From positions 10,054 through 74,053 of the forward strand of contig JBLNDL010000014.1 of the NCBI GenBank assembly GCA_050261575.1: a DNA stretch of 64,000 bases, in the 5' to 3' direction. The translations under genes were made by a program, and so were the position numbers. The notes under the pieces were generated by a model. It saw only the letters and a list, made by a program, of their open reading frames with translations. It ran no database searches and was not told the DNA's origin. This DNA is from Sphingomonadaceae bacterium (GTDB taxonomy: Bacteria; Chloroflexota; UBA6077). Within the stretch, counting starts at the first letter, position 1. The number at the start of each line of letters is the position of its first letter. Shown in pieces: positions 13,099-60,401 of this stretch.

Positions 13099-13109
13099 GG
13101 GTGAAGGGG

Positions 13110-15159: not shown

Positions 15160-15160
15160 G

Positions 15161-16225: not shown

Positions 16226-16283
16226 AGGAGTGGGATGGTGGGGGCGGGCTCCGCCCCCACCGATCCATCGAAGGGAGTTGGCC

Positions 16284-16475: not shown

Positions 16476-16487
16476 GGGCCCTCACCC

Positions 16488-16533
16488 CGCAACGCGAGCG
16501 AGTGCAGCGTTGCGCCTCTTGCAGAAGGAGAGG
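16488..16533. repeat. compound hairpin repeat: family H copy 4 plus CCTCTT..AGAGG hairpin
   Basis: CGCAACG-CGAGCGAGTGCAG-CGTTGCG, then CCTCTTGCAGAAGGAGAGG; preceded by GCCCTCACCCC. Confidence 0.55.
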
Positions 16534-16559
16534 GGGAACTGGGGACAGCCTCTCCCGTC

Positions 16560-17099: not shown

Positions 17100-17312
17100 G
17101 GGCAGGCGGGCGTGTCTGCCCGGCCGAGGTGGAAGCGCGGCGCCGTGTGTGAGGGACGAGGGCGCACCCGTGTGTGCGCCCCTGCCAGGGTGACGCCGCG
17201 TCGGTAGGGGCTGACGCGCATCGGTCTGGGCGGGCCCGAAGAGCAGTCGACGGCGAGAACGCCGAGTCGGCGGGCATGGTGGCAGGGCTGCCGGCCCCCA
17301 CGTTACCCACTC

Positions 17313-17358
17313 CACAACGCGAGCGAGCGCAGCGTTGCGCCTCTCCCAGGGGGAGAGG
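17313..17358. repeat. compound hairpin repeat: family H copy 5 plus CCTCTCCC..GGGAGAGG hairpin
   Basis: CACAACG-CGAGCGAGCGCAG-CGTTGCG, then CCTCTCCCAGGGGGAGAGG; ~70 nt upstream of dsrM. Confidence 0.55.
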
Positions 17359-17425
17359 CAGAGTAGCGGAGAGATCCAGCGAGCGAGGCATTCGTTCCGA
17401 TGGCCGTGAAGCGAGGCAGTGCTAG

Positions 17426-18430: not shown

Positions 18431-18431
18431 G

Positions 18432-20069
18432 ATGCCGGAGAAGAAACCGACACCAGAGCAGTTGATGCAGGTGGATCACACGCCGCCCTCGCGGGACTGG
18501 ATGGACGCCCACGTCGACTTCCAGGCCAGGAGGGGCAGCTACTGCTACAGCGCGAAGCCGGAGATGCTCGAATATCTCGGCATGCCCAACCCTCGGAAGT
18601 GGCAGCCCTACGATGAGGACTGGAAGCTTCCCCCGGACTGGAGGGAGACGATCCTGGAGGGGATGAAGGAGAGGCTGGCGAAGTACCGCTCCTTCAAGCT
18701 CTTCATGGACATCTGCGTGCGATGCGGCGCTTGTGCAGACAAGTGTCACTACTTCGTCGGCTCCGGGGACCCGAAGAACATGCCCGTCCTGAGGGCTGAG
18801 CTGATGAGGTCGGTGTACAGGAGGTACTTCACCACCTCCGGGAGGCTGTTGGGACGTTTCGGGGGGGCGCGCGAGCTGACGGAGGAGGTGCTGAAGGAGT
18901 GGTTCTACTACTTCTACCAGTGCACCGAGTGCCGCCGCTGCTCCGTCTTCTGTCCCTACGGCATCGACACCGCCGAGATCACGATGATGGGGCGGGAGCT
19001 GCTCAATCTGGTGGGGGTGAACATCAACTGGATCCTGGAGCCTGCCGCCAACTGCTACCGCACCGGCAACCACCTGGGGGTCCAGCCGCACACCTTCAAG
19101 GACAACCTGGAGTTTGCCGCATCGGATCTAGAAGACATCACGGGGGTTAAGGTCGAGGCGCCGATCAACAGGAAGGGCGCCGAGGTGCTGGTGATCGTGC
19201 CCTCGGCAGACTACTTCGGGAATCCCCACTACTATACCTTCCTGGGCTACCTGGCGATCTTCCAGGAGATAGGGCTGGACTACACCTTCAGCGCGTTCGC
19301 GTCGGAGGGAGGCAACTTCGGCCTGTTCTCCTCGCACGAGATGGCGAAGCGGCTGAACGCTAAGATCTACGCGGAGGCCGAGAGGCTGAAAGTGAAGTGG
19401 ATCCTGGGGGGCGAGTGCGGCCACATGTGGAGGGTGCTGCACCAGTACATGGACACGCACAACGGCCCCGCCGACTTCTTGGAGGTGCCGGTCTCGCCGA
19501 TCACGGGAACAAGGTTCGAGCATGCCAGGTCGACGAAGATGGTGCACATCGCCGAGTTCACGGCGGACCTGCTGCGGCACGGGAAGCTGAAGCTCGACCC
19601 GAGCCGGAACGACCGCTGGCGGGTGACCTACCACGACTCCTGCAACCTCGCGCGGAGCATGGGGCTGTTCGAGGAGCCGCGCTACATCCTGAGGAGTTGC
19701 TGCAACCACTTCTACGAGATGCCGGAGAACACCATCCGGGAGAAGACCTTCTGCTGCGGGAGTGGCTCAGGATTGGGGACCGAGGAGAACCTGGAGATGA
19801 GGCTGCGGGGCGGGCTGCCCAGGGCCAACGCGGTGAAGCACGTGCACGATAAGTACGTCGTGAACCTGCTCGCCTGCATGTGTGCTATCGACAAAGCCAC
19901 TCTTCCGACGCTGATGGAGTATTGGGTGCCGGGGGTGGAGGTCGCCGGCGTGCACGAGCTGTTGGGCAACGCCCTCGTGATGACAGGCGAGAAGAAGCGG
20001 ACCACGGACCTGCGCTTCGAGCCTCTGCCGGGCGTGGAGGAGGCGGAGGGGGTGGAAGCCAATGTATGA
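18432..20069 (+). CDS. dsrK: DsrK, cytoplasmic FeS/CCG-domain subunit (HdrD-like)
   Basis: 545 aa; CVRCGACADKCH and CTECRRCSVFCP ferredoxin motifs; CCG-domain cysteines (CCGSGSG). Confidence 0.85.
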   Translation: MPEKKPTPEQLMQVDHTPPSRDWMDAHVDFQARRGSYCYSAKPEMLEYLGMPNPRKWQPYDEDWKLPPDWRETILEGMKERLAKYRSFKLFMDICVRCGACADKCHYFVGSGDPKNMPVLRAELMRSVYRRYFTTSGRLLGRFGGARELTEEVLKEWFYYFYQCTECRRCSVFCPYGIDTAEITMMGRELLNLVGVNINWILEPAANCYRTGNHLGVQPHTFKDNLEFAASDLEDITGVKVEAPINRKGAEVLVIVPSADYFGNPHYYTFLGYLAIFQEIGLDYTFSAFASEGGNFGLFSSHEMAKRLNAKIYAEAERLKVKWILGGECGHMWRVLHQYMDTHNGPADFLEVPVSPITGTRFEHARSTKMVHIAEFTADLLRHGKLKLDPSRNDRWRVTYHDSCNLARSMGLFEEPRYILRSCCNHFYEMPENTIREKTFCCGSGSGLGTEENLEMRLRGGLPRANAVKHVHDKYVVNLLACMCAIDKATLPTLMEYWVPGVEVAGVHELLGNALVMTGEKKRTTDLRFEPLPGVEEAEGVEANV

Positions 20070-20445
20070 CGGTGGGAAGATCGTCCCAGGGCTGATCCTC
20101 TTCCTGGGGTTGCTGTTGACGCCCTTCTGGTACAACGCCGGGGCGGGGCGGGCGGCTGCAAAGCCGGAGATCGTAAAGCCGGTCGACGAGAAGGCGTGCG
20201 TGGAGCCGGCGGAGTTCATGCGGGCCAACCACATGCGGCTGCTGATCGACTGGCGCGAGGACGCCGTGCGCGGCGGCGACCTGCTGTACGTGGCCGGCGA
20301 CGGGAGGAAGCACGACAAGAGCCTCAGCAACAACTGCATGAAGTGCCACTCCAACAAGGAGGAGTTCTGCGACCGGTGTCACGACTACGCCCAGGTTAAG
20401 CCTAACTGCTGGGATTGCCACACGGTCCCCAAGGAGGGGAAGTGA
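20062..20445 (+). CDS. dsrJ: DsrJ, periplasmic triheme cytochrome c
   Basis: 127 aa, N-terminal signal/TM, three CXXCH (CMKCH, CDRCH, CWDCH). Confidence 0.8.
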   Translation: MYDGGKIVPGLILFLGLLLTPFWYNAGAGRAAAKPEIVKPVDEKACVEPAEFMRANHMRLLIDWREDAVRGGDLLYVAGDGRKHDKSLSNNCMKCHSNKEEFCDRCHDYAQVKPNCWDCHTVPKEGK

Positions 20446-21245: not shown

Positions 21246-21252
21246 GGTAGAG

Positions 21253-22425
21253 ATGGTGGAGAAAGCGCTGAGGGGAAGCCGCGCGTATTGGGGCTGGCTG
21301 CTGTTCCTGCTCGCTGTGTCCGTGACAGGGCTCGGCTTCTACCTGTGGCAGGCCGCGACCGGCACCGAGGCATCGGGGCTGAGCAGGGACGTGCCGTGGG
21401 GCTTCTTCATCGCGAACTACACGTTCATGGTCGGGGTGGCAGCTTCGGCCGTCGTGGTGGTGATACCGTACTACCTCCACAGCCAGAGGGAGTTCGGCCG
21501 GATGATCGCGCTGGGGGAGTTCCTGGCCGTAGCAGCGGTGCTGACGACCCTGCTGTTCATCATGGCGGACCTGGGCCAACCCGGCAGGATGTTCAACATC
21601 CTCCTCTACCCGACGCCCAATTCCCCCTTCTTCTGGAATACCATCGTCCTGCCGGGCTACCTGCTGCTGAATCTGGTGATAGCCTGGTTCACCCTGGATG
21701 CCGAGCGGCACGACGTGCCGGTGCCCGGCTGGGTGAAGCTGCTGATCCTGGTGTCGATCCCCTGGGCGATCAGCATCCACACCCTTACGTCGTTCGTCTA
21801 CAGCGGGTTGGTGGCGAGGCCGTTCTGGAACAGCGCCATATTGACCCCCCGCTTCCTCGCCTCGGCCTTCGCCTCGGGTCCTGCGCTGCTGGTGATCCTG
21901 GCGCTGGTGGTGAGGCGTTACACCGGCTACGATCCGGGCAGCAGGGCCATAGAGAAGGTGGCGCTGATCGTCACCTACGCTGCCACCGCCAACCTGTTCC
22001 TGGTGCTGGTGGAGATCTTCGCAGTGGTGTACAGCAACGTCGCGGGGCACATGGAGCACTTCGAATACATGTTCTTCGGCCTCGAAGGGCGCGGCCAGTT
22101 GGTGCCATGGATGTGGCTCTCGGTGATCGTGGCGGTGGTGTCGGTCGCGCTGCTTATCGTCCCGCGGACTCGCAGGAACGAGAAGACGTTGCTGGCGGCC
22201 TGCGCGGGGGTGTTCTTCTCCACGTGGATCGACAAGGGACTCTGCCTCGTGGTGGGGGGATTCGTTCCCTCGACGCTCGGCAGGATCACGGAGTACCTGC
22301 CAACGGTGCAGGAGTGGGTGATCGCTGGCGCGATATACGCAGCCGCGGGGATGTTGTTGACGTTGCTGTACAAGGTGGCCATCGGCGTGAGACTGGAAGA
22401 GGAGGAGGTGCAGGAATGCCGATAA
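21253..22425 (+). CDS. dsrP: DsrP, NrfD/PsrC-type integral membrane subunit
   Basis: 390 aa, ~10 TM helices, NrfD-like topology. Confidence 0.8.
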   Translation: MVEKALRGSRAYWGWLLFLLAVSVTGLGFYLWQAATGTEASGLSRDVPWGFFIANYTFMVGVAASAVVVVIPYYLHSQREFGRMIALGEFLAVAAVLTTLLFIMADLGQPGRMFNILLYPTPNSPFFWNTIVLPGYLLLNLVIAWFTLDAERHDVPVPGWVKLLILVSIPWAISIHTLTSFVYSGLVARPFWNSAILTPRFLASAFASGPALLVILALVVRRYTGYDPGSRAIEKVALIVTYAATANLFLVLVEIFAVVYSNVAGHMEHFEYMFFGLEGRGQLVPWMWLSVIVAVVSVALLIVPRTRRNEKTLLAACAGVFFSTWIDKGLCLVVGGFVPSTLGRITEYLPTVQEWVIAGAIYAAAGMLLTLLYKVAIGVRLEEEEVQECR

Positions 22426-23006: not shown

Positions 23007-24602
23007 CTACCACTCGAGATAGGGAGGGAGGTCGGACATCGCGTTCACGATCAACTCGGCCAGGCCGCCGTAGTGGAGGTTGTGTTTCTCCCCGATGCCG
23101 TAGAACTCCAGCAGCCCCCGCATCTGCCCCTTGCAGTTGGAGCAGGGGGCGCAGACGTACTTGGGGATGGATGGATCCATCTCCCCCTCGAAGGCTTCGA
23201 GTATCTGCTTCAGCTTCGTCCGGCCCGAGATCGCGTTCCGCCACTCGGGGAAGTTGAGCGCCTGCATGATTGCGAAGCCGCTGCCACCCCCGCAGCAGTA
23301 GTTCTCCACGCCGTGCGGGGCCATCTCCCGGAAGCGTGGGGCGATCCGCCGCAAGATCCTGCGCTGGGGCTCCACGATCCCCATCAGCCGCACGACGTTG
23401 CAGGGATCGTGGAGGGTCACCGGGAAGTCGTTTCGGCCGGGGTCCAACTCCAGCCTGCCGGAGGCGACGAGGCCGTCTAGCAGGGTGAGGCAGCTCTCCC
23501 TGGGCACGTTGTACTCGGCTGCGAATATGCGGTCGGCGATGACCGAGAGCGCCTTGTGGGCGTGGCCGCACTCGCCGATCACGATCTTCTTCACCTTCAG
23601 CTTCTTCGCCACCTGGGCGTGCCTGAGGGCGATGCGGGCGAACTGGACGTCGTCGTACCAGAGGCCGTAGTTGACGGCGTCGTATCCGAGCAGGTCGCTG
23701 GAGAGGGTGTAGCTTAGCCCTGCCCGTTCGAAGACGATGGCGAACGCCTCCGGGTTCTCCGGCCAGGCCACGAACTCGCCCGCATTGTGGAGCAGCAGGA
23801 TATCCGCCCCCTCCTTGTCCACCGGCCACTCGAAGCTGAGGCCGGTGCGGTCCGTGACGTCCTCCTGGAGGAACTCGATGTTGTTGGCCAGCGCGGCCGG
23901 TGTCATCCCCGTGCTGGAGCCGACCCGAAGCTGCTGGATCGTTCCCTGCTGGTGGATTTCCTTTGGGGCGATCCCCATCTCCATGCTGAACAGCTTCCTG
24001 ATCTCGTGGGCCACGAGCCCGTTGTCCACGCCGATGGGGCACGCCTGGGCACAGCGGCGGCAGAGGTTGCAGCGGTAGGCCAGCTCCGCCAGGCGGGCCA
24101 CGGTTCGCCAGTTCAGCTCGACTTCCGCGCCGGACAGCTTCGCCCTGAGCCTCCCCGCGGGGGAAAGGTACTTCCTGACGATACGGCGGAGGACCTCCGT
24201 GCGGAAGCTCGGGCGGTAGGCTGGGAGGCGGCCGCTGGCCTGGTAGACGTGGCAGGCGTCGGCGCAACTCTGGCAGCGGGCGCAGTTGTCCAGGGAGAGC
24301 ACGAGCGGCTGCCAGAAGGCCCAGTTGCTGTCGCGAGAGAGCAGCTTCCGAAGCCCTCGGAGGAAGCTCTCCACCAGCGTCCTCTCCGCCTCGGGCGAGC
24401 CCGGTTTGGGGATGGCGATGGCGGAGTAGCCATCCAGGGAGGCCTCAAGGGTCTTGCGGCGATCGGACCTGACCCCCTGCAGGGGGGGGAGTGGGGCCTC
24501 GCAGGGGAAGGGGAGCGGCATCAACCCCTCCGAGCGCGGCTGAAACAACGGGTCGGTCTCCCGACCGAAGTCCCGCTCGTTCAACTCGGGATAGCCCTCC
24601 AT
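23007..24602 (-). CDS. DsrK/HdrD-like FeS (CCG-domain) oxidoreductase, paralog 2
   Basis: CARCQSCADACH, CNLCRRCAQACP, CCGGGSGF; similar architecture to dsrK; ATG overlaps upstream stop (TGATG); RBS GGAGG. Confidence 0.75.
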   Translation of the reverse strand: MEGYPELNERDFGRETDPLFQPRSEGLMPLPFPCEAPLPPLQGVRSDRRKTLEASLDGYSAIAIPKPGSPEAERTLVESFLRGLRKLLSRDSNWAFWQPLVLSLDNCARCQSCADACHVYQASGRLPAYRPSFRTEVLRRIVRKYLSPAGRLRAKLSGAEVELNWRTVARLAELAYRCNLCRRCAQACPIGVDNGLVAHEIRKLFSMEMGIAPKEIHQQGTIQQLRVGSSTGMTPAALANNIEFLQEDVTDRTGLSFEWPVDKEGADILLLHNAGEFVAWPENPEAFAIVFERAGLSYTLSSDLLGYDAVNYGLWYDDVQFARIALRHAQVAKKLKVKKIVIGECGHAHKALSVIADRIFAAEYNVPRESCLTLLDGLVASGRLELDPGRNDFPVTLHDPCNVVRLMGIVEPQRRILRRIAPRFREMAPHGVENYCCGGGSGFAIMQALNFPEWRNAISGRTKLKQILEAFEGEMDPSIPKYVCAPCSNCKGQMRGLLEFYGIGEKHNLHYGGLAELIVNAMSDLPPYLEW

Positions 24603-25507
24603 CACTTCGCCTCCGAGGCCGCGTCGGCCCAACTCTCGTCGGGATCGATGTGGGGCGCGGACCAGCCGACCGGCCGGGCCAGGTTGGATCGCATGCGGTC
24701 CAGCATTCGGGGGTCGCCGAGGTTAGGGGCATCGTCCCAACGCACCTGGTGGTAGGTGAAGTACTTGGCGACGAAGTGGGTCATGTGAGTGAATGGCAGG
24801 TAGATCAGGAACAGGGCGGCCACGACGACCTGGGCGGCGACGGCGGGGCTCACGTGGGGCGGCGTGCCGAAGGTGAGCGCTCCCCGGAGGAACGCTCGAA
24901 GTTGGGAGAGGGAGGGGTCCGCGGTGAGCCAGGCGAACGCGGCAGAGAGGAAGACCGCGAGCAGGAAGATCAGGTTGACGTAATCCGCGCGCGTGCTGGA
25001 GTTCCTGAGCCGCGCGTCGGTGAGGCGACGGCGCAGTAGGGAGAGCGCCCCGAACGTGGCGGAGAGGAGCCCGGCGGCACCGGTGGCGTGGGTGAACCCA
25101 TCGAGGACGCTCCACCAGGGGGGCGGGTCGCCCGCGGGCTGCAGGGCGGCGCCTAGGACGAGCAGCAGGGTGAAGCCGAAGAGGAGGTAGATGCCGGCGT
25201 GGAACGGGAAGGAGGCGCACCAGTGGGGGCGATTGTGGTGCCAGAGGCTGCGGACGAGCAGCATCTCCTCCAGCATCGCCCGGATCTCTCCCGATAGGCT
25301 AGTGTCCCGGGGGCGGGTCCACCAGTCTGGATCCTCGAAGTAGGAGCCGCCGTGGTCTGCCTTGCCCTTTTCATGGGGCACGGGGTAAAGCTCCCAGCGG
25401 AGGTGCATCGGTGCGCGCGCGTACTTGGCGGCGGTCAGCGCGACGCCGGTGAAGAAGGCCAGGACCGAGATGTAGGTAAGCGCCAGCAGCAGCGACGGTC
25501 CGATCAA
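24602..25507 (-). CDS. DsrM/HdrE/NarI-like membrane heme-b protein, paralog 2
   Basis: 301 aa, 5-6 TM helices with conserved His; TTG start with RBS GGAGGA; translationally coupled to the downstream DsrK-like gene. Confidence 0.65.
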   Translation of the reverse strand: MIGPSLLLALTYISVLAFFTGVALTAAKYARAPMHLRWELYPVPHEKGKADHGGSYFEDPDWWTRPRDTSLSGEIRAMLEEMLLVRSLWHHNRPHWCASFPFHAGIYLLFGFTLLLVLGAALQPAGDPPPWWSVLDGFTHATGAAGLLSATFGALSLLRRRLTDARLRNSSTRADYVNLIFLLAVFLSAAFAWLTADPSLSQLRAFLRGALTFGTPPHVSPAVAAQVVVAALFLIYLPFTHMTHFVAKYFTYHQVRWDDAPNLGDPRMLDRMRSNLARPVGWSAPHIDPDESWADAASEAK

Positions 25508-49635: not shown

Positions 49636-49704
49636 CACCTATCTCTAGTTCATGTCACCTTCTCCGGCGGGAGACGCGTACTCCATCTGGAGATACCTGC
49701 TCAG
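49636..49704 (+). mobile_element. MITE-like element, copy 3 (left end degenerate)
   Basis: ...CACCTATCTCTAGTTCATGTCACC...CTGGAGATACCTGCTCAG; right TIR overlaps the TGA stop of ccmD. Confidence 0.5.
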
Positions 49705-49850
49705 TTGCCCTCTCGCTCGGCGAGGACTGCCTTCAGCGTCTCGATCTCCTCGCTCAGGGTCTTCTGTCGCGCGGCGATGCTGTAACTGTAGAGGAGCATC
49801 GCGAGCCAGATGATGGCGTAGGCCGCGAATAGAAACGTCAGATTGCCCAT
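49701..49850 (-). CDS. ccmD: heme exporter protein D (CcmD-like small membrane protein)
   Basis: 49 aa single-TM MGNLTFLFAAYAIIWLAMLLY..., directly downstream of ccmC; RBS GGAGG. Confidence 0.5.
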   Translation of the reverse strand: MGNLTFLFAAYAIIWLAMLLYSYSIAARQKTLSEEIETLKAVLAEREGN

Positions 49851-49933: not shown

Positions 49934-50701
49934 CTACTCCTCGTAGAGCACATGGTCTCGTAGCCGGTACACCTCTTCCCTCTGCAGTTCGAGCCTCGTC
50001 CGCAGCCGGAGCAGGTGGACGAAGAGGAGGGTGAAGGCGGCCAGGCACACCACGAGGGTGGTCACCATGCGGGGATCGAGCTCCAGACTGGTGGAGGTGA
50101 TGACCACGGGGTGGATGGTACGCCACCATCTGATCGACATAAAGACGATCGGGACGTCGACGAAACCCACGATCCCTACGACGGCGGCGAGGGATGCGCG
50201 CTTGGAGGGGTTCTCCACCGCCGATCGGAGCATCAGGTAGGAGACGTAGATCAGCCACAGGATCAGGGTAGTGGTTAGCCTGGGGTCCCAGTCCCACCAG
50301 GTGCCCCACGTTGGCTTGGCCCAAATGGACCCAGTAAGGAGCGCCACCGTGGTGAAGAGGACGCCCACCTCCGCCCCGCTGGCGGCGAGGGCATCCCATC
50401 GGTGCCTCCTGGTGCGAAGCCACTGTATGCTGGCCGCGAACACCACAGCGAACGAGAGGAACCCGACCCAGGCCGCAGGCACGTGGAAGTAGAAGATGCG
50501 CTGCACGTCTCCCATCGTCGCCTCAGTTGGTGCGTAGAGAAAGGCGAAGTAGAGGGCCACCACCATCGCCGGAGCCACCGACCATCCGATGAGGTCGGGT
50601 TTGGAGCGACCGGCGATGCGGCTCAGTCCGGTCGCGTCTCTCTCGCGCGCGTCGCGCGTGGGTTTCGCCTCGGCGTCTACTGCCATCGGTTGCTCACTCA
50701 T
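49934..50701 (-). CDS. ccmC: heme exporter protein C
   Basis: CcmC family: WGTWWDWDPRL WWD motif, 6 TM helices. Confidence 0.8.
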   Translation of the reverse strand: MSEQPMAVDAEAKPTRDARERDATGLSRIAGRSKPDLIGWSVAPAMVVALYFAFLYAPTEATMGDVQRIFYFHVPAAWVGFLSFAVVFAASIQWLRTRRHRWDALAASGAEVGVLFTTVALLTGSIWAKPTWGTWWDWDPRLTTTLILWLIYVSYLMLRSAVENPSKRASLAAVVGIVGFVDVPIVFMSIRWWRTIHPVVITSTSLELDPRMVTTLVVCLAAFTLLFVHLLRLRTRLELQREEVYRLRDHVLYEE

Positions 50702-50707
50702 GGGCGG

Positions 50708-51382
50708 CTACTCCTGGAACACGTACTCGAATGTCAGGAAGGCTGCGGTAAGGAAGATAGCGTCGAAGCCGATCAGGACCGACAGCCAGGGACCGGAGCT
50801 AGCAGCAGGGGTGCTCGCCAGCGCCTCACCCGTCGCTTTGACGGCGGCGACGAGGACCGGCACCGCCACCGGTAGCAGCAGGATCGGTAGCATGATCTCC
50901 CGGGTCCGGGTGTGGACGGCAATGGCCGAGAAGAGGGTCCCCACGGCGGCGAAGCCAAGGGTTCCCAGCAGAACGATCAGCAGCAACCCGGGGCTGAAGA
51001 CCGGCAGATCGAAGAAGGCCCCGAACACCGGAAGGATGATGGCCTCCATGGTGGCCATGAAGAGCAGGTTGCCGACCATCTTGCCCAGGTAGATGGTGCC
51101 GCGATCGACGGGGCAGAGGAGGAGTCCCTCCATGCAACCCCGATCCTTCTCGGTGATGAAGGATCGGTTCAGTCCCAGCATGCCTGCGAAGACTATTGCT
51201 ACCCAGAGCACCCCGGGAGCGGCGGCCTCTTGGTTCTCCACCCTCAGGTCGAAGGCGAAGTTGAAGATCACTATGACCAGGAGGGCGAAGACGAACATGG
51301 AGCTGAGCATCTCGCGTGTGCGCAACTCCGAAACCACATCCTTGCGGACGATGGCCAGCACCTTGTCCAGGTAAGACATCAT
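50708..51382 (-). CDS. ccmB: heme exporter protein B
   Basis: 224 aa, 6 TM helices, CcmB-like; follows ccmA with 4-nt overlap. Confidence 0.7.
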   Translation of the reverse strand: MMSYLDKVLAIVRKDVVSELRTREMLSSMFVFALLVIVIFNFAFDLRVENQEAAAPGVLWVAIVFAGMLGLNRSFITEKDRGCMEGLLLCPVDRGTIYLGKMVGNLLFMATMEAIILPVFGAFFDLPVFSPGLLLIVLLGTLGFAAVGTLFSAIAVHTRTREIMLPILLLPVAVPVLVAAVKATGEALASTPAASSGPWLSVLIGFDAIFLTAAFLTFEYVFQE

Positions 51383-52143
51383 CGCCCGTTGCCCCCCCTG
51401 TGGCCTTGGGCGGTGTATCGGGAGTAGAGCTGGCGGACTGTGGTTGGATCCAGCTCCTCCGAGGGCGCCTGGAAGGCGATCCGCCCATCCACCAGGATGA
51501 CCACTCGGTCGCTGAGGGCCAGACCCAGGTCGAGGTGGTGGGTGATGACCAGCGCCGCCCTGCGGCGACCGGAGGCGGGCTCCCGCAGCAGGTCGACCAG
51601 CAGTTCGAGTGCGTCCTGGTCGAGCCCCGCCTCCGGCTCGTCCAGCATCAACACCTCCGGGTCGTGGAGAATCGCCCTCGCCATGGCGATCCGCTGCCGC
51701 ATCCCATGGGAGAAGGTGCCGACCCGATCGTCGAGTCGAGCCGTAAGCCCAACCCGCTCAACCGTCTGCGCGATCCTACGATCGAGGTTCTGGACATCGT
51801 ACATCCGGCCGTAGAAGCGGAGGTTCTCACGCGCCGTCAGGTCGTCGTACAGGTAGGAATGGTGGGAGACGACACCGATCCGCCGTCGCGCTTCGAGGGG
51901 GTCTTCTTCGGGATCGATGCCGTCTATCACCACGCGGCCGGTGGTGGGAGAGGCAACCGTGGCCAGGATGCGCATCAGAGTGGTCTTTCCGGCCCCATTG
52001 GGGCCGAAGATGGCCACCCGCTCTCCCCTTGCCAGGGAAAGGCCGATCCCCTTGAGTACCAGCCGGTGGCCGAATCGCTTCGTGACTCCCTTGGCCTCCA
52101 GGGCCAGGGCGGTCGACTCGGCCACCGTCGATCCTCCGATCAC
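51379..52143 (-). CDS. ccmA: heme exporter ATP-binding protein CcmA
   Basis: Walker A GPNGAGKTTL, signature FSHGMRQR, Walker B LMLDEP. Confidence 0.8.
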   Translation of the reverse strand: MIGGSTVAESTALALEAKGVTKRFGHRLVLKGIGLSLARGERVAIFGPNGAGKTTLMRILATVASPTTGRVVIDGIDPEEDPLEARRRIGVVSHHSYLYDDLTARENLRFYGRMYDVQNLDRRIAQTVERVGLTARLDDRVGTFSHGMRQRIAMARAILHDPEVLMLDEPEAGLDQDALELLVDLLREPASGRRRAALVITHHLDLGLALSDRVVILVDGRIAFQAPSEELDPTTVRQLYSRYTAQGHRGGNGR

Positions 52144-53591
52144 TGGTCGCCCCTGGCGGCCGCCAGCGCCTTCTGCCGGGCGACCACCTCGACCAGGCGC
52201 TTCTTCTTCTCCGCCCGCAGGCGTCCGTACTCCTCGGCGCCGATCTTCCCGCTCTCGAATTCGTCGTCCAGGCGCGCGATTGCGCCTATCAGTTCTCGCT
52301 TCTCGGCATCGAGGATCTCCTCCTCGGCCTCGATCTCGGCCTCGGTGTGCGGCGCGGCCGACGCTTCCTCAAGGCCGGATTCGGCCTCCGGCGATTCCCT
52401 GTTGCGTGCGGGGGCTGCAGGCCGAGCGGCGCCGGTGCGCCGCTTGCCGCGTCGCCTCACCAGGATGACCGCGACCACGACGACCGCCACGACGATGGCT
52501 GCCACCCCGGCTATCAGCGGCGTCTGAGACTGCTGCGCCGTGGGTGCCTGTGCCTTGGATAGCTGGTCCAGGTCGAACTTCAGCTCGGTATCGGCGGACA
52601 CGTTGTCACCGCTGAGGAGCACGAACTTCTCGCCCTGGATGTCGGGGTTGCTCCTGTTGGGGAGGTTGGACACCGAGATGCCCACCCCGTTGTCCGGCAT
52701 GAGGACGTTGACCTTGGCGGTTGCCTGGGTGACCTTCGAGACGAAGCTTGCGGAGCCGTTCGTGGCGGTGATCCGGTACCGGAAGATCCGTTGAGTGTCG
52801 CCAGGATAGAGCGGCCAGGTGTCTACCAGGCTGCCCTCGCTCTCGAACACTCGGGTTCCGACCATGCCGCCGCCGTATTCCACGTCTTGAGCGCCCTGTG
52901 GAAGGGCGAAGCGAAGGGTCTCCTTCACTCCCTCGTGGATTTCCCTGGAGCCCACGTAGGTCTTGTCGCCGCTGTTGCTGATGATGGCGATCTCGGATAC
53001 GTTGACTCCCTCGGGATCCGGCTCCAGGAGGTAGTGGCGGGCGGCCCATTTGATTGCCTGGTCGGAGGTGGTGGCGTCGAACACTTGCACCTCGGCCGTC
53101 TGCTCGGAGGAGCCCGACGGGAACGTGAGCGGCTCGGCCGCGTAGTCCACTCCCTGATACTGGACGTGCAGCAAGTAGGTGAAGTCCTGCCCGGTCTCCA
53201 GTCCTTCGAAGGCGAACTTCCCGTCCTGTCCGGCAGTGGCCGTCCGCTTGTCGGCCTGATCCTGACCCTTGAAGACGAGGAGGTTGACCTCGACCCCGGC
53301 CACGCTGCCTCCGTCCTTGGTCAGATTCACCACGCTGCCCTTGATGGTGCCCATGGCTCCCGTCGCCGCCGTTGCCGCCGGGGTGGCGGCGGGAGTAGCG
53401 GCAGGCGTGGCGGCCTGCTGGCTCTCCGCGGCCATGGCCGTGGCAGCCAGGCCCAGGAAGAAGACCGCGACGAGCGCGAGCGCAGTCAGTGTGGTAGCCC
53501 TCACCCTAGCCCGCTCCCAGAGGGAGAGGGGATTCGCCGACTGCCTCTGGGAGCGAGTCGGGGTGAGAGCCCCAGTCGATCCGTTCTCCAT
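52140..53591 (-). CDS. secreted, membrane-anchored protein with carboxypeptidase-regulatory-like beta-sandwich and C-terminal coiled-coil, embedded in the ccm operon
   Basis: Signal peptide, ATPAATPAATPA linker, GSVVNLTKDGGSVAGVEVNL (CarbopepD_reg-like), C-terminal TM plus charged helix; RBS GAGGGGG; overlaps ccmA start. Confidence 0.45.
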   Translation of the reverse strand: MENGSTGALTPTRSQRQSANPLSLWERARVRATTLTALALVAVFFLGLAATAMAAESQQAATPAATPAATPAATAATGAMGTIKGSVVNLTKDGGSVAGVEVNLLVFKGQDQADKRTATAGQDGKFAFEGLETGQDFTYLLHVQYQGVDYAAEPLTFPSGSSEQTAEVQVFDATTSDQAIKWAARHYLLEPDPEGVNVSEIAIISNSGDKTYVGSREIHEGVKETLRFALPQGAQDVEYGGGMVGTRVFESEGSLVDTWPLYPGDTQRIFRYRITATNGSASFVSKVTQATAKVNVLMPDNGVGISVSNLPNRSNPDIQGEKFVLLSGDNVSADTELKFDLDQLSKAQAPTAQQSQTPLIAGVAAIVVAVVVVAVILVRRRGKRRTGAARPAAPARNRESPEAESGLEEASAAPHTEAEIEAEEEILDAEKRELIGAIARLDDEFESGKIGAEEYGRLRAEKKKRLVEVVARQKALAAARGDQ

Positions 53592-53649: not shown

Positions 53650-54237
53650 CTACCGCTTCGACCCGCGTCGAAGTGATGCCCCGCACCTGCTGCAGAAGGC
53701 CGCTTCGGGGTCCAGAACCCGTTGCCCGCATTCGGGGCAGAGGACCGCACTCGAGCCCTTGGAGTCCCCGCCTCTGCGGACGCTGGACCCCTTGGATCGC
53801 TTTCGGAAGGATTGGATCTCCTCCTCCAGGTCCAACTCCGAGTCCTCGACGTGGCCGCGTCCGGTATCCCCGGCCGTCGAGGGCAAGTCGGCCAGGAACT
53901 CCTCCTCGGCCTCCGGAACGCTCCTGCCCCGGAGTCTGCCGGATCGTGCGTCGTCGATTCGTTTGAGGATGGCCACCGCCTTCTTCTTGTATCGGTCCTG
54001 GAGTTCCTGGAAATCCTCCTGGGATAGGTTGCCCATCGCCAGGTCGAACTCCAACTCCTTCATGGCGGCGTACACCGTGTCTCGCTGGAAGAGCAGTCGC
54101 TGGAGCACGGGCTCGCTCGGCTCCCCACCGAGGAACTCCTCGGGTCTGGTTCGCCCGAAGAGAAGGGGCCATGCTACGAAGACCGCTGCGCCGACGGTGA
54201 TGGCCAGCATGGCCACCATGGTCCACTGGAACGACAT
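53650..54237 (-). CDS. membrane-anchored protein with C-terminal zinc-ribbon (CPECG...CSRCG)
   Basis: N-terminal TM, acidic helical region, C-terminal C-P-x-C-G/C-x-R-C-G pair; between ccmH-like and the unknown secreted gene. Confidence 0.4.
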   Translation of the reverse strand: MSFQWTMVAMLAITVGAAVFVAWPLLFGRTRPEEFLGGEPSEPVLQRLLFQRDTVYAAMKELEFDLAMGNLSQEDFQELQDRYKKKAVAILKRIDDARSGRLRGRSVPEAEEEFLADLPSTAGDTGRGHVEDSELDLEEEIQSFRKRSKGSSVRRGGDSKGSSAVLCPECGQRVLDPEAAFCSRCGASLRRGSKR

Positions 54238-54257: not shown

Positions 54258-54815
54258 CTATTCGAACTGCTGCAGATCTCTCGAGAGTTGGGACTCGTAC
54301 CGTCGCAACTCTTCTTCACTCAGATCCCTGGCCACCTCGGCGTTCAGGTAGGCATCGTGCCACCTGCGCTCCCTCAACCAGGCGGTCAGCAGGTACCCCA
54401 GGAGGGCAGCCCCGCCGAAAATGGTGGCGAAGGGGGTGATCCAGGCCGCCAGGCTGAAGCCCTGCTTGGAGGGCGCCGGCAGGATGCGCTCGCCGTACTG
54501 GCGAACCAAGGTGTCCACGATCCTCTGACGTGGCCAGCCTTCGGCCGTCTTGGCTCGGATGAACGATCTCATCCACGCGGCCTCGGGTGTGTTGGACGTG
54601 CGCAGCGGCCGCGAACTGGCCGCCGAAGGGCACCTCAACTCGTCGATCAGTTCATCCGCCGGGTCGGTTGCCCCCAGCGGTGCAGTCAGCCAGAGTACCA
54701 CGACCCCGGCCGACAGCAACGCGACGAGGATAAGCCGCAGGGCAGGCGAATGGCTCTCTCCACGGTGAGGGAGAGCCCGCCTCGTCGTCAACATCGCATT
54801 ACGGATCCACCGCAT
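54258..54815 (-). CDS. ccmH: CcmH/NrfF-like cytochrome c biogenesis protein (LRCP motif, single Cys)
   Basis: Signal/TM, LIDELRCPSAAS where the canonical family has LRCxxC; C-terminal TM; TPR-less short form. Confidence 0.5.
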   Translation of the reverse strand: MRWIRNAMLTTRRALPHRGESHSPALRLILVALLSAGVVVLWLTAPLGATDPADELIDELRCPSAASSRPLRTSNTPEAAWMRSFIRAKTAEGWPRQRIVDTLVRQYGERILPAPSKQGFSLAAWITPFATIFGGAALLGYLLTAWLRERRWHDAYLNAEVARDLSEEELRRYESQLSRDLQQFE

Positions 54816-54899: not shown

Positions 54900-56903
54900 C
54901 TACGCATCGACCGGCTGAAGCACTTCTGCCGTTGGACGCTCGGCGGCCAGCCACGCCGCCTCTCGACGCCTCTCCTTCGCGTCCGGCCAGATGGCGATGA
55001 AGCCGCCCAGCATCAGCAGGTAGCCTCCGGCCCATATCCACGCCACCAGGGGGTTGATCACGAGTCTCAGTGAGGCGCTCTGGCCGGTCCAGGAGTTGAG
55101 TATGAGATAGAGGTCCTCCGCCGCAGTGCTTCGGATGGCCACCTCTGTGTTGGGCTGATCCCAGCCCTGGTAGAACTCCTTGGTGGGGGTCATCGTCCCC
55201 AGCAACTGGTCGCCGGAGTACATGGTGATGTTCGCCGCCACGATCTCCTTCCGACCCTCCCTAGAATCGGAGAGACCCTGGTAGACCAGGCGGTAGCCGC
55301 CGATGGTGGCCTCCTGGCCCGGGGCAAGGGTGACGTCTTTCTCCGTCTTGAAGCCGCTGGAGCCCACTACGCCGATGGCCAGCACGACGATGCCGAGATG
55401 AACCAGGTAGCCGCCGTAGCGAGGCTTGTTTCCCCAGACCAGCGGGCCCAGCGCGAGCAGGGGGTTGCGGTTCAGTATGCGAGCTTGGGCGCGCGCCCCG
55501 CGCCAGAACTCCAGGGCTATGGTGCCCAGCACGAAGCCGCACGAGGCGAACGCCACCAGTGCGTAGAGCTGGCGGACGTTGAGGAAGAGGGCGATCGCCG
55601 TGGCGATCAGCCCAGCCAGGACCGGAGCGCGGAAGTTCCTCAGGAGGTTGTCCATCGAGGCTCGCCGCCAGCCGATGATGGGGCAGATCCCCATGAGAAC
55701 GACGATGGCGAGCAGAATGGGACCGACCACCTGGTTGAAGAACGGCGCGTTGACTGTGACCTTGACACCGCGGATCGCCTCGGAGATCAGCGGGAACATC
55801 GTGCCCCAGAGGACGGCGAAGGCGCCGCCCACCAGGAGAAGGTTGTTCAGCAGGAAGCTAGACTCCCTGGAGACCAGGGAGTCCAGTTCGTTCTCCCCCT
55901 GCAGAAGCGGAAGCCGGTCCCAGATGAGCGCGACGGAGACGGTGATGGTCACGAGCATCATCGCCACGAACATGGGCCCGACGTTGGTTTCCCCGAAGGT
56001 GTGCACTGAGGAGAGGATATCGCTTCTCGTGAGGAAGGTGCCGAAGACGGTGAGGAGGAAGGTGGCGATGATCAGCGCGAGGTTCCACACCTTCAGCATG
56101 CCGCGGCGGCGCTGGATCATGATGGAGTGGAGGAAAGCGGTGCCGGTGAGCCACGGCATGAAGGAGGAGTTCTCCACCGGGTCCCAGCCCCAGTAGCCGC
56201 CCCATCCCAGCTCCACGTAGGCCCACTGGGCGCCCAGCAGGTTGCCGATGCCCAGGAAGACCCACGCGAAGAGCGTCCATCGCCTGGTGATCTGGATCCA
56301 CTCGTTGCCCAGTTGTCCAGTGATGAGCGCAGCCAGGGCGAAGGCGAAGGGCACCGTGAACGCGACGTAGCCCAGGTAGAGGGCGGGCGGGTGGAACAGC
56401 ATGCCCACGTTTTGGAGCAACGGGTTCAGGCCCTGGCCGTCGGGAGGCGGAGCCGGCAGACGGATGAAGGGGTCGGAGAAGAACACCAGCAGTGATAGGA
56501 AGAAGGTCGAGACGAAGCCCATCACGGAGGTGACCCAGGGCATGAGGGTCTTGTGCCGCCCCCGGTTCTGGAGTGTGACGATCAGCAGCATCATCACGAC
56601 GCCCCAGGCCCACATGAGCAACGAGCCTTCTTGGCTGGCGTAGGCCCCGGAGAGGCTGTAGACGAGGTCGATGTCGCGGCTGTTGTAGCGCGCGACGGTC
56701 TGCAGGGAGAAGTCGTGGGTCGCGAAGGCGTACAGCAGCACCCCCCAGGCAAGGGAGACCAGCGCGGCCGCGGCGTAAACCGCATTGCGTGCGCTGGCCA
56801 GCAGATCCGCCTCGCGCCGCGTGATGCCGATTGCCGAAATCACCGTCAGGTAGGAGGTGATGACGAAGGCTACAACCAGTGAGATGCGTCCGATTTCTGC
56901 CAT
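54900..56903 (-). CDS. ccmF: cytochrome c-type biogenesis protein CcmF (heme lyase)
   Basis: 667 aa, ~15 TM helices, WGGYWGWDPVEN WWD motif. Confidence 0.85.
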   Translation of the reverse strand: MAEIGRISLVVAFVITSYLTVISAIGITRREADLLASARNAVYAAAALVSLAWGVLLYAFATHDFSLQTVARYNSRDIDLVYSLSGAYASQEGSLLMWAWGVVMMLLIVTLQNRGRHKTLMPWVTSVMGFVSTFFLSLLVFFSDPFIRLPAPPPDGQGLNPLLQNVGMLFHPPALYLGYVAFTVPFAFALAALITGQLGNEWIQITRRWTLFAWVFLGIGNLLGAQWAYVELGWGGYWGWDPVENSSFMPWLTGTAFLHSIMIQRRRGMLKVWNLALIIATFLLTVFGTFLTRSDILSSVHTFGETNVGPMFVAMMLVTITVSVALIWDRLPLLQGENELDSLVSRESSFLLNNLLLVGGAFAVLWGTMFPLISEAIRGVKVTVNAPFFNQVVGPILLAIVVLMGICPIIGWRRASMDNLLRNFRAPVLAGLIATAIALFLNVRQLYALVAFASCGFVLGTIALEFWRGARAQARILNRNPLLALGPLVWGNKPRYGGYLVHLGIVVLAIGVVGSSGFKTEKDVTLAPGQEATIGGYRLVYQGLSDSREGRKEIVAANITMYSGDQLLGTMTPTKEFYQGWDQPNTEVAIRSTAAEDLYLILNSWTGQSASLRLVINPLVAWIWAGGYLLMLGGFIAIWPDAKERRREAAWLAAERPTAEVLQPVDA

Positions 56904-57051: not shown

Positions 57052-57525
57052 CTACTGGGTAGCCGGCGTGTACTTGGAGGCGCACTTGGCCAGGAGCGTG
57101 GAGGCCTGGAACTGGCCATCGACCCCCAGCTTGCCCTCGACGATCACGTCGGTCCCCTCCTGGAAGCTGTCGGGGACGACCCCCGTGTAGGTGATCGGCA
57201 GGGTTTCCTTGCCGTCGGTGAGACTGAAGGACACGGTGCTGGTCCCCTTCTCCCACTGCACGGAGCCCTCGACCACCCGTCCTCCCAGCTTGGTCTGCTG
57301 GCCGATGGCCTTCTCCCCCATCGCCTTGAGCTCGCCGGTGGTGACGAAGTACTCGGACCCGCTCTGGGTGGCCGCGTAGATCATGTAGGCTATGGCGGCC
57401 ACGATCACGAGCCCCGCCACCACGAACCGCAACTTGGTGCGGGGGCGACGGCGGCTCGAACCCCTGCTGGACGCTCTTGCCGTCGCGACTCGCGAGCCGG
57501 TCCTGACGGTGTCCTCTGTCAGCAT
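57052..57525 (-). CDS. ccmE: heme chaperone CcmE, Cys-type variant (LAKCASKY)
   Basis: N-terminal TM, OB-fold core, C-terminal LAKCASKY where the canonical protein has LAKHDENY (Cys replaces the heme-binding His). Confidence 0.75.
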   Translation of the reverse strand: MLTEDTVRTGSRVATARASSRGSSRRRPRTKLRFVVAGLVIVAAIAYMIYAATQSGSEYFVTTGELKAMGEKAIGQQTKLGGRVVEGSVQWEKGTSTVSFSLTDGKETLPITYTGVVPDSFQEGTDVIVEGKLGVDGQFQASTLLAKCASKYTPATQ

Positions 57526-57703: not shown

Positions 57704-58108
57704 CTACCACGGAAGCCAGTAACGGTGGGTCGAAGACTCCACGATCAGTCTGCCCCGGTAGATGCCCATCTCCGAGGTAAACAGATACTCTCCCCGTGGG
57801 GGCTGCGGCAATTCGATGCAGGTGGTCCTATACGCCGGCAACCGTCTGTCGACCCCGAGTTCTGAGAAGATCACCCGGCTGGAGCACTCCTCGTTCTCCA
57901 GACGGGTAAACCTCAGCCTCAAGGGGATCCCCTCGCGCGCAATAGCCACGTCAGGGGTGTATCCCCCCAGCACCACTATCTCCATCTCCTGCACCCCATC
58001 CGGCCCCAGCCGCGCCTCCCGGCGGCGCCGGTCGTTGCGCCGAACGAGAAGGAGGGCCACAACCGCTGGAAGCCCGAAGAGGGTGGCCAGTACAGCGAAT
58101 TGGTCCAT
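57704..58108 (-). CDS. membrane-anchored cupredoxin-like domain protein (tentative)
   Basis: N-terminal TM then ~100-aa beta-rich domain (EIVVLGGYTPDVAIAREGIPLRLRF) resembling a cupredoxin_1-type fold; low confidence. Confidence 0.3.
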   Translation of the reverse strand: MDQFAVLATLFGLPAVVALLLVRRNDRRRREARLGPDGVQEMEIVVLGGYTPDVAIAREGIPLRLRFTRLENEECSSRVIFSELGVDRRLPAYRTTCIELPQPPRGEYLFTSEMGIYRGRLIVESSTHRYWLPW

Positions 58109-58251: not shown

Positions 58252-58322
58252 ACCTGGTGTCTCCAGTTCTTGTCAACTTCCCCGGCGGGAAACGTGTACT
58301 CTATGCAGAGATACCCGCTTAG
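58252..58322 (+). mobile_element. MITE-like element, copy 4
   Basis: ACCTGGTGTCTCCAGTTCTTGTCAACTTCCCCGGCGGGAAACGTGTACTC...GAGATACCCGCTTAG; right TIR supplies the TAA stop of the histidine kinase gene. Confidence 0.5.
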
Positions 58323-59701
58323 ACTGCGGGCAGGCGGACGGTGAAAGTGGTTCCCTGTCCCGGGTCGCTGCTAGCCTCGATCTCGCCCCCGTGCTCCTCT
58401 GCGATCCAACGGGCGATGGCCAGTCCCAACCCGGTGCCCCCTTCGTCACGGGCCCTGGCCTTGTCCGCCCGATAGAAGCGCTGGAAGATGTGTGGCAGGT
58501 CCTCCGGCGCGATCCCCATGCCGGTATCCTTCACCCGGAGCACGGCCATCCCGTCCTCGCGCTGCAGGGACAGCGTGACGGTCCCGCCGCGAGGCGTGTA
58601 CTTGAAGGCGTTCTCCAGGAGTATCAGCAGCAACTGCTTGAGCCAGGTGGCGCTCGCGCGGACCGCCACTGGCTGGACCGAGTCCATCATCAGCGCCACG
58701 CCGTGCTCGTTGCCCTGCCGCGTGCGATAGGTGTCGGCCAGCAGTTCGTCCAGGTCGACTCTCTCCATGTCGATCTTGTGGCCTGCGTCGGCCTTGGCCA
58801 GCAGCAGCAGGTCGGAGGTTAGCCGGCTCATTCGCTCGACCTCCGCTGCCACGTCGTCCAGGGCCTCCGCCCGATCCTCTTTCGGTGCGTCCAGGGCTCG
58901 CTGCAGGAACTCGATGTTGCTTCGGATGGAGGTGAGAGGGGAGCGCAGCTCGTGGGAGGCATCGGATACGAACCGCCGCTGGGCGTCGTAGGCCGCGTCG
59001 AGGCTGGAGAGCATCTCGTTGAAGGTGATCGCCAGCCGCCCGACCTCGTCTCGCGACCTGCCCACCTTTAGCCTCCGCCCAAAGCCGCGGGACAGGGCGA
59101 TTGCTCGGGCGGTTTGGGTGATCTCCTCGATCGGTTTCAGCCCGTTGCGGGCGATCAGCCAGCCGACCGCCACCGCCACCAGTAGGCCGAAGGCGTTGCC
59201 GGCCAGCAACAGTGCCCTCACGCGGGCCAGGGCGGCATCCACATCCCGAAGGGAGCTGAGCACTAGGACGAACCCCCTGGGCTCTCCCGTGCCGCGGATG
59301 GGCGCGAGTAGGGCTCGGTATCTTTGCCCCTGCATTGCGGCGGTGTAGCTGGCCGGTGTTCCCCACCAAGCTGTGGCGAAGGCATCGTCGGGAATGGGGA
59401 AGGTCTCGCCAGCCAGGTTGGATGAGCTGGCGACGGGGCGGCCGTTGGGGTCCAGTATCTCCACCGACACGCCAGGGGATGCGAAGGGCTCGAGTGCTCC
59501 CTCCTGGACCGTGATGGGAGCGGAGGGGTCTGGGCTGCTCCTGAGGGATTGGCGCACCTGTTCGCTGAATGGGGCGAGCCAGCGGTCCGCCTGCAGCAGC
59601 AGTTCGCGCTCCAGGGTGAGGTAGACCAGGGGCGCGAAGATCAGGAACATGAGGGCCAGGAGGGCCGTGTACCAGAGAGCCAGACGGAGGCGGATGGACA
59701 C
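58319..59701 (-). CDS. sensor histidine kinase (HAMP-HisKA-HATPase_c, OmpR-partner type)
   Basis: Two TM helices, HAMP, H-box SHELRSPL, N/G1/G2 boxes. Confidence 0.85.
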   Translation of the reverse strand: MSIRLRLALWYTALLALMFLIFAPLVYLTLERELLLQADRWLAPFSEQVRQSLRSSPDPSAPITVQEGALEPFASPGVSVEILDPNGRPVASSSNLAGETFPIPDDAFATAWWGTPASYTAAMQGQRYRALLAPIRGTGEPRGFVLVLSSLRDVDAALARVRALLLAGNAFGLLVAVAVGWLIARNGLKPIEEITQTARAIALSRGFGRRLKVGRSRDEVGRLAITFNEMLSSLDAAYDAQRRFVSDASHELRSPLTSIRSNIEFLQRALDAPKEDRAEALDDVAAEVERMSRLTSDLLLLAKADAGHKIDMERVDLDELLADTYRTRQGNEHGVALMMDSVQPVAVRASATWLKQLLLILLENAFKYTPRGGTVTLSLQREDGMAVLRVKDTGMGIAPEDLPHIFQRFYRADKARARDEGGTGLGLAIARWIAEEHGGEIEASSDPGQGTTFTVRLPAV

Positions 59702-59705
59702 GCGG

Positions 59706-60401
59706 TCACTCCCTCAGAACGTATCCCGCTCCCCGAACGGTGTGGATCAGCCGCGGCTCGCCCTCCGCCTCCAGCTTGGTCCGGAGGTAGCGGATGTAGA
59801 CCTCGAGGACGTTGGACTCGCTCTCGAAGTCGTAACCCCACACCTTCTCGAGGATGACGTGCCGCGGTACCACCTCGCCCGGGCGACCCAAGAAGAACTC
59901 CAGCAGCCTGTACTCGGTGGTGGTCAGATCGATCCTCCGCTCGCCACGGCGCGCGGTCCTGGAGCGGGCGTCGAGGTGGAGGTCCTGGTAGATCAGCTCG
60001 GTGCGAGGCTGGGGCTCCCTGCGGCGCAGCAGCGCACGTACGCGCGCGAGCAACTCCTCGAAGGCGAACGGCTTGACCAGATAGTCGTCGGCTCCGGCGT
60101 CCAGGCCGGCGACCCGGCTGGCCACCTCGTCCTTGGCGGTAAGCATCAGTATGGGAACGTCGCTGGTCCGGCGAAAGAGCCGACACACCTCCATCCCGTC
60201 GATGCCGGGCATCATGATGTCCAGCACCACTAGGTCTGGCGCGGGGTCTCTGGCCCTCGTGAGGGCCTCGGCGCCGCTGTTGGCGACGTCCACCGCGTAC
60301 CCCTCGTAGGTGAGGCCGCGGCGGAGCGCGCCGGTGATCTTCCGGTCGTCGTCAACGACGAGTATGCGCGGGCTGGTCTGGGGGTGGCCATTCACTTCCA
60401 T
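59706..60401 (-). CDS. OmpR-family response regulator
   Basis: ILVVDDD...D receiver and winged-helix trans_reg_C ([24 protein letters not shown]). Confidence 0.85.

Follow-up and report, generated by a model that had tools for sequence, protein, structure and literature searches.

Cytochrome c maturation by System I relies on CcmE, a heme chaperone. In canonical CcmE the heme-binding residue is the histidine of an HXXXY motif, as in the proteins of Escherichia coli (PDB 1sr3 and 8ce8) and Shewanella (1j6q). A second form, in which this histidine is replaced by cysteine, has been known from the literature since 2006. According to the accounts given in PMC3601427 and PMC9084895, the system based on Cys-CcmE, termed System I*, was defined by Allen (2006) and Goddard (2010). 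In a 2011 review, delta-proteobacteria provide most of the bacterial Cys-CcmE cases, with chloroflexi and firmicutes also featuring, and CPSKY is the majority motif (PMC3601427). CcmH occurs in about one third of the bacteria that have Cys-CcmE, and its absence is not characteristic of System I* (PMC3601427).

The stretch of DNA analysed here, 64 kb in length and referred to below as the window, contains a ccmE gene of this second type. By analogy with the characterized members of the subclass, the product of this gene is very probably a functional periplasmic heme chaperone with a membrane anchor, acting in a complete System I (Ccm) operon. The residual interest of the locus lies in a CcmH-like protein with a single cysteine and in the accessory genes next to it, not in CcmE.

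The ccmE gene and the spread of its Cys motif

The gene and its motif are located as follows.

57052..57525, minus strand: ccmE, Cys-type heme chaperone, 157 aa (ORF, PF03100, AlphaFold model, Foldseek)
57070..57093, minus strand: LAKCASKY motif, CcmE residues 145-152 (alignments to 8ce8_E, 1sr3_A, 1j6q_A and 2kct_A; codons checked)

The ORF runs on the minus strand from an ATG at 57523-57525 to a stop codon, included, at 57052, which are exactly the bounds at which the sequence-only reading had placed a CcmE variant with cysteine instead of the heme-binding histidine in LAKCASKY. A Shine-Dalgarno-like AAGAGAGGAGAGAGG is found 3 nt upstream of the ATG. The third-position GC of 0.92 is typical of the real genes of the window, whose overall GC is 65.6%. 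The protein matches the Pfam profile PF03100 (CcmE) with 109.4 bits (cut-off 24.6, E 1.2e-31), over profile positions 2-98 of 99.

The AlphaFold model, based on a 47-sequence alignment, has a pLDDT of 87.3. It predicts a cytoplasmic N-terminal tail, a transmembrane helix (residues 30-56), a further helix (63-73), a five-strand OB barrel (77-146) and a flexible C-terminal tail, with low confidence from about residue 147 onwards. The top five Foldseek matches of this model in the PDB (8ce8_E, 1sr3, 1lm0, 1j6q and 2kct) are all CcmE structures, and 2kct superposes on it at 1.6 A over 77 columns. The eight NCBIfam CcmE equivalog models (including NF009727 and NF009638) all remain below their cut-offs, the best score being 103 against a required 126, and therefore appear not to cover the Cys subclass. 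An annotation pipeline using NCBIfam equivalogs alone would probably leave Cys-type CcmE proteins unnamed.

A phmmer search of PDB sequences matched CcmE chains only. The segment LAKCASKYTP aligns without gaps with LAKHDENYTP of E. coli CcmE (8ce8_E and 1sr3_A), placing Cys148 (codon TGC, 57082-57084) and Tyr152 (codon TAC, 57070-57072) column for column on His130 and Tyr134. Cys148 also falls over the cysteine of Desulfovibrio vulgaris CcmE (2kct) in the phmmer alignment. In the model Cys148 forms the root of the flexible tail, two residues past the last barrel strand, as does His130 in the E. coli protein. A 12-sequence alignment with identities down to 31% shows no variation at Cys148, Ser150 or Tyr152. 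The ORF, the PF03100 match, the codons and the alignments thus confirm the variant as it had been described, with the cysteine at the His130-equivalent position relative to both the E. coli and the D. vulgaris chains and not displaced from it. The motif, which had been likened to the CXXXY form of archaea and sulfate reducers, indeed matches the form described for archaea and Desulfovibrio (PMC9084895, PMC3601427).

The Cys form is widespread. The pattern C-[AP]-S-[KR]-Y is present in all 75 homologues found in a search of 5.8 billion proteins; few of these have a source name, and those named are Chloroflexota and one Deltaproteobacteria. A HMMER search of 1.84 billion cluster representatives (50% identity) gave 4,490 matches, of which the best 150 were typed. 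Among these best 150, the motif position is occupied by cysteine in about 130 and by histidine in 9, and is unresolved in 11; by motif, 111 are of the CP type and 23 of the CA type. In a rough neighbour-joining tree of the CcmE barrel alone, with the motif columns removed, seven of the eight His-types are placed close together at one end and the window protein nests among the Cys-types. Since this nesting is obtained without the motif columns, it suggests that the cysteine was inherited and is not a recent substitution.

A scan for related loci, covering one genome per GTDB species and using peptide patterns from a 7-sequence CcmE alignment, found 58 loci. These span Chloroflexota/Dehalococcoidia, Spirochaetota, Latescibacterota, Acidobacteriota (Vicinamibacterales), Bdellovibrionota (Bacteriovoracaceae), Myxococcota, Calditrichota, Thermodesulfobacteriota, Desulfovibrionaceae, Mucispirillum and Thermoleophilia. 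CASKY, with alanine for proline, is a minor sub-variant common to Bacteriovoracaceae and others. Judged by its sequence, the window CcmE is an ordinary member of a large and widespread family in which the Cys form is a lineage trait. This form dominates the metagenomic sequence neighbourhood of the window protein and is not a curiosity of archaea or sulfate reducers. For CcmE itself little changes, as the locus extends a well-documented variant to a further uncultured, Chloroflexota-like lineage. Neither the variant nor its occurrence in Chloroflexota is new, chloroflexi being already listed in PMC3601427.

The ccm operon, its surroundings and its clients

The ccmE gene heads a minus-strand operon with the order ccmE-F-H-(I-like)-x-A-B-C-D. 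The following genes belong to the operon or lie directly upstream of it; the genes between ccmF and ccmA are listed further below.

59706-60401, minus strand: OmpR-type response regulator, upstream of the ccm operon (ORF; synteny with Pfam labels)
58319-59701, minus strand: HAMP histidine kinase, upstream of the ccm operon (ORF; synteny with Pfam labels)
57704..58108, minus strand: membrane-anchored cupredoxin-like protein, directly upstream of ccmE (PF13473, 39.6 bits)
54900..56903, minus strand: ccmF, heme lyase, 667 aa (PF01578 and PF16327)
51379..52143, minus strand: ccmA, ABC ATPase (PF00005; TIGR01189, 130.2 bits against a cut-off of 131.6)
50708..51382, minus strand: ccmB (PF03379, 122.5 bits)
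49934..50701, minus strand: ccmC (PF01578; TIGR01191, 170.5 bits)
49701..49850, minus strand: ccmD-family small membrane protein, 49 aa (TIGR04391 CcmD_alt_fam, 38.6 bits against a cut-off of 24)

CcmF of the window can be aligned over its whole length with Thermus thermophilus CcmF (6zmq; 375 bits). It has the WWD motif (WGGYWGWDPVEN) and four conserved histidines, read by eye in FHPP, FLHS, SVHTF and LVHLG. CcmC likewise has a WWD motif (WGTWWDWDPR), with histidines in FYFHVP and RTIHP. The cluster is a complete ccm operon, and its host is a Chloroflexota-like sulfite reducer. The same gene order recurs in the ENA contigs L001 and L002, in L003 and L007 (Chloroflexi bacterium UBA6077) and in the Chloroflexota MAGs L005 and L006; in L001, L003, L005 and L006 the operon is intact and syntenic. 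The order response regulator, histidine kinase, cupredoxin-like gene and ccmE recurs in L001 and L003, and the cupredoxin-like gene has the same place in L005 and L006. No thioredoxin/CcmG or CcdA homologue was found within the 64-kb window or within +/-10 kb in L001, L003, L005 and L006.

Two further observations concern these surroundings. The cupredoxin-like protein of the window apparently lacks the usual Cys/His copper ligands (FTSEMGIYRG, by eye); that of L003 also seems, by eye, to be without them, and a cysteine is kept in L001. The CcmH-like protein of the window, read from its ATG, is 100% identical to P0224, a protein from a MAG labelled 'Sphingomonadaceae bacterium' by NCBI. All close relatives of the ccm operon that have a genome title are Chloroflexota, which in view of this label suggests that the contig may be mis-binned or mislabelled.

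The window also contains the following genes of dissimilatory sulfite reduction on the plus strand.

13972-16225, plus strand: dsrAB
16284-16475, plus strand: DsrD-like ORF, 63 aa
17426-22425, plus strand: dsrMKJOP
20062..20445, plus strand: dsrJ, triheme cytochrome c with CMKCH, CDRCH and CWDCH (CXXCH scan; within dsrMKJOP)

The dsrJ gene is about 35 kb from ccmE. With its three CXXCH motifs, DsrJ provides the Ccm operon with a plausible local client and is likely to be matured by the Ccm system of the window. The DsrD-like ORF suggests a dsr system of the reductive type. A protein with an RsbRD_N domain is encoded among the dsr genes (13972-22425), and a second DsrMK-like pair (a NarI-like and a CCG-domain protein) lies on the opposite strand to them (23007-25507, minus strand). 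Just upstream of dsrAB, a GAF/HAMP histidine kinase (10657-13098, plus strand) is paired with a LuxR-type regulator (13095-13760). The predicted extracytoplasmic sensor domain of this kinase, between two hydrophobic segments and before HAMP, contains CYDCH (residues 260-264). The kinase may be a heme c-binding sensor and hence another client of the Ccm system.

The sequence-only reading had regarded the Cys form as fitting the dsr context. This holds in so far as dsrAB, a DsrD-like ORF and dsrMKJOP are all present in the window. However, the argument is weak, as the same type of CcmE occurs in Vicinamibacterales, Bacteriovoracaceae, Thermoleophilia and Spirochaetota. The Cys form was also considered as a marker of sulfate reducers and rejected as such, given its occurrence in numerous lineages that are not usually counted among the sulfate reducers. 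This occurrence, together with its presence throughout the clade whatever the neighbouring genes, suggests that Cys-CcmE is inherited with the lineage and is not tied to sulfate reduction. The association of this protein with sulfate reduction is historical, the earliest bacterial case having come from Desulfovibrio, and not mechanistic.

A CcmH-like protein with a single cysteine and two accessory genes

It is an open question in the field whether the cysteines of CcmH deliver reductant or whether CcmH acts mainly as an apocytochrome chaperone. The cysteines of E. coli CcmH are not essential under all conditions (PMC3420020). The sequence-only reading had proposed a survey of short CcmH forms accompanying CcmE of the CXXXY type. 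This survey revealed a CcmH in the operon of the window ccmE, with a single cysteine, followed by two accessory genes.

54258..54815, minus strand: ccmH-like, 185 aa (178 aa from the ATG at 54794; PF03918, 61.8 bits against a cut-off of 25)
53650..54237, minus strand: CcmI-like protein with a transmembrane anchor, a cytoplasmic helix like the N-terminal part of CcmI (KELEFDLAMGNLSQEDF) and a C-terminal zinc ribbon (Zn_Ribbon_1; TIGR03142)
52140..53591, minus strand: 483-aa membrane protein, between the CcmI-like gene and ccmA (PF13620, 26.4 bits, below cut-off)

In the CcmH-like protein the first cysteine of the LRCxxC motif is kept (Cys62, 54630-54632) and the second is replaced by alanine (Ala65, 54621-54623), giving LRCPSA. 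In the alignment to CcmH of Pseudomonas aeruginosa and E. coli (2hl7 and 2kw0) this motif falls over LRCPKC. The protein ends with a hydrophobic segment followed by a cytoplasmic helix. Cys62 is its only cysteine, which makes an intramolecular CXXC disulfide impossible. Of the homologues in which the motif is covered, 34 in number and 55-100% identical, none has the second cysteine, the pattern being L-x-C-P-x-[S/A/P/T/V]. A sequencing or frameshift error behind the missing cysteine was considered and rejected, the same pattern being found in these 34 independent homologues; its loss is therefore a fixed trait of the lineage. A literature search of titles and abstracts returned no description of a natural CcmH with a single cysteine or lacking CXXC.

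Other Cys-CcmE loci have different forms of CcmH. The canonical CPxC form is found in the Chloroflexota loci L004, L017 and L022. In two of these three, L004 (2228-4999) and L017 (4726-5925), a thioredoxin gene lies directly beside ccmH, and in L004 two CcdA/DsbD_TM genes also adjoin it. In this small sample, no adjoining thioredoxin or CcdA gene was found in L022 or near the single-Cys ccmH loci. Fusions of CcmF and CcmH (825-847 aa) with Cys-rich motifs occur in Vicinamibacterales and other Acidobacteriota. A multi-Cys CcmH of the CQCGC type (LVCQCGCG...NC..C) is found in Spirochaetota and in one Chloroflexi MAG. In Bacteriovoracaceae and other Bdellovibrionota, CcmH is encoded upstream of ccmE and has the motif WSPYCKG, in which the first cysteine is replaced by serine. 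No CcmH was found in the sampled Cys-CcmE loci of Desulfovibrionaceae and Thermodesulfobacteriota. The loci concerned are the following.

L025 10567-13059, L027 10501-12993, L045-L047, L049, L057, L058: CcmF-CcmH fusions
L009 12458-12991, L010, L014, L021: CQCGC-type CcmH
L029, L030, L033, L034, L038, L042, L043, L048, L051, L054: SPYC-type CcmH

The window clade therefore offers a natural, lineage-wide CcmH that is incapable of forming a CXXC disulfide, and sister lineages with CXXC keep an adjacent thioredoxin.

The CcmI-like protein of the window scores 14.3 bits with TIGR03142 (CcmI; cut-off 29.3, E 0.037). In the family to which it belongs, 16 of 35 members match this model at E <= 0.1, the best at E 4.8e-6. 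The family consists of small transmembrane proteins with a KELEFD..G.LS.EDY helix, many of them with a terminal zinc ribbon, and their genes closely follow ccmF or ccmH at the Cys-CcmE loci of several phyla. A search of the PDB with the family profile returned zinc ribbons only, with no solved N-terminal domain of CcmI among the matches. Members of the family were located elsewhere at these positions.

L009, 13006-13623: CcmI-like protein
L013, 13156-13458: CcmI-like protein
L046, 12973-13617: CcmI-like protein
L059, 12445-12720: CcmI-like protein

The 483-aa protein has a weak CarboxypepD_reg-like domain, a C-terminal transmembrane segment and a cytoplasmic helix, and its length matches the call in Logan contigs. 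Orthologues of 430-480 aa occupy the same position of the operon in L001 (13721-15157), L003 (13456-14754), L005 and L006, and the protein was detected only in the Chloroflexota clade of the window. Judged by eye, there is a resemblance between its cytoplasmic tail (ARLDDEFESGKIGAEEYGRLR) and the helix of the CcmI-like protein.

It seems possible, and is put forward tentatively, that a third version of System I operates in this Chloroflexota clade, combining Cys-CcmE, a CcmH without its second cysteine, a CcmI-like zinc-ribbon protein devoid of TPR and the clade-specific 483-aa protein. CcmH would then not be a dithiol reductant. Its lone thiol could form an intermolecular mixed disulfide with the apocytochrome or with holo-CcmE, or could be idle, in which case CcmH would serve purely as a chaperone. 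On this view the altered chemistry of CcmE and the loss of the CcmH dithiol would be functionally linked. No description of such a system was found in the literature searched.

Proposed heme transfer and comparison with known systems

In the proposed pathway, CcmC would present heme on its WWD domain and the thiol of Cys148 would add to a heme vinyl group, generating covalent holo-CcmE, most likely through a thioether. Tyr152 would supply an axial ligand to the heme. CcmAB with CcmD would release holo-CcmE, which would dock on CcmF, a protein that keeps its WWD motif and four conserved histidines, and heme would pass there to the CXXCH sites of DsrJ and other apocytochromes. We infer the covalent attachment through Cys148, and its chemistry, from the CcmE proteins of Desulfovibrio and Methanosarcina. 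The thioether that the sequence-only reading had proposed in place of the His-vinyl bond is likewise put forward in PMC3601427, where the heme-Cys bond is argued by analogy, for the model organisms as well. In E. coli, CcmE H130C takes up heme but is unable to hand it over (PMC9084895), which implies that the partner proteins in the window system must be adapted to cysteine.

Alternatively, the binding of heme by Cys148 could be purely non-covalent, the residue serving as an iron ligand or making a transient contact, and the hand-over would involve neither a thioether nor a covalent intermediate. In an NMR study of D. vulgaris CcmE (PDB 2kct), the isolated soluble domain is said to show Cys-dependent but non-covalent heme binding in vitro. 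However, that domain was separated from CcmC, without which the attachment step does not take place. A thioether would also be unusually stable for a transfer intermediate and is expected to be hard to break (PMC3601427). On the other hand, Cys-CcmE of Desulfovibrio desulfuricans, when produced in E. coli, is reported to carry covalent heme in vivo and to support cytochrome c synthesis (PMC3601427). Moreover, the heme-stained CcmE band of Methanosarcina acetivorans depends on C120, and the heme of CcmE disappears, together with the holocytochromes, in both C120A and C120H (PMC9084895). A purely non-covalent role of Cys148 is accordingly considered unlikely.

A dedicated Nrf-like lyase module (NrfE/NrfF type), serving a special heme motif and not general maturation, would be a different reading of the whole operon. 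CcmF scores about equally with TIGR00353 (CcmF/NrfE family, 467.7 bits) and TIGR03145 (NrfE, 455.9 bits), both below their cut-offs, and the sole NCBIfam match of the CcmH-like protein is NrfF (30.3 bits, also below cut-off). The operon nevertheless has its own ccmABCD and ccmE, unlike Nrf modules, there is no adjacent nrfA, and the CXXCK motifs of the window occur only in non-cytochrome proteins. As the same full operon is, in addition, the sole ccm cluster seen in the related loci, specialization of this kind is highly improbable. Finally, a neutral or degenerate cysteine in a decaying, non-functional ccmE has nothing in its favour beyond the departure from the textbook histidine and can be practically dismissed in view of the intact ORF with its good ribosome-binding site and third-position GC, the invariance of C, S and Y of the motif across phyla and the synteny of the whole operon.

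The preferred reading, a Cys-type chaperone acting in a complete System I operon, can be set against the described systems. The window CcmE shares with the System I* proteins of D. desulfuricans, D. vulgaris (2kct) and archaea such as M. acetivorans the cysteine at the His130 position with a tyrosine four residues on, the OB barrel with its flexible tail, the consensus C-[PA]-S-K-Y and an operon with ccmABC(D) and ccmF. It differs in having CASKY instead of the majority motif CPSKY, and at the sequence level it is only distantly identical to 2kct (32.6 bits). The original definition of System I* excluded CcmH, whereas the window has a PF03918 CcmH-like gene after ccmF. System I* is also described as having no CcmG or other partner for thiol reduction; for the window genome, the search for such genes covered the 64 kb of the window and found none. 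Unlike the archaeal systems, in which CcmH is absent (PMC9084895), its operon includes both this gene and CcmD.

The CcmH-like protein resembles CcmH, whose N-CcmH domain is a three-helix-bundle thiol-disulfide oxidoreductase with LRCXXC (2hl7 and 2kw0), in its LRCP start, in the SN.P..A..R and YG signatures, in its place directly after ccmF and in its hydrophobic C-terminal segment. It differs in the replacement of the second cysteine by alanine and in a one-residue insertion after the motif. In CcmI, an N-terminal domain (TIGR03142) is combined with a TPR domain. The CcmI-like protein of the window is, in contrast, without the periplasmic TPR domain: no TPR family was matched in it, and its C-terminus is a zinc ribbon.

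Canonical HXXXY CcmE (E. coli 1sr3 and 8ce8; Shewanella 1j6q) has the same fold, topology, length, operon partners and tyrosine as the window protein, and the best-scoring solved relative of the latter is E. coli CcmE (62 bits). The two nevertheless differ at the very position that binds heme, where histidine is replaced by cysteine, and in the residues that follow, where DENY becomes ASKY with loss of the acidic residues; the window protein also falls below the NCBIfam equivalog cut-offs.
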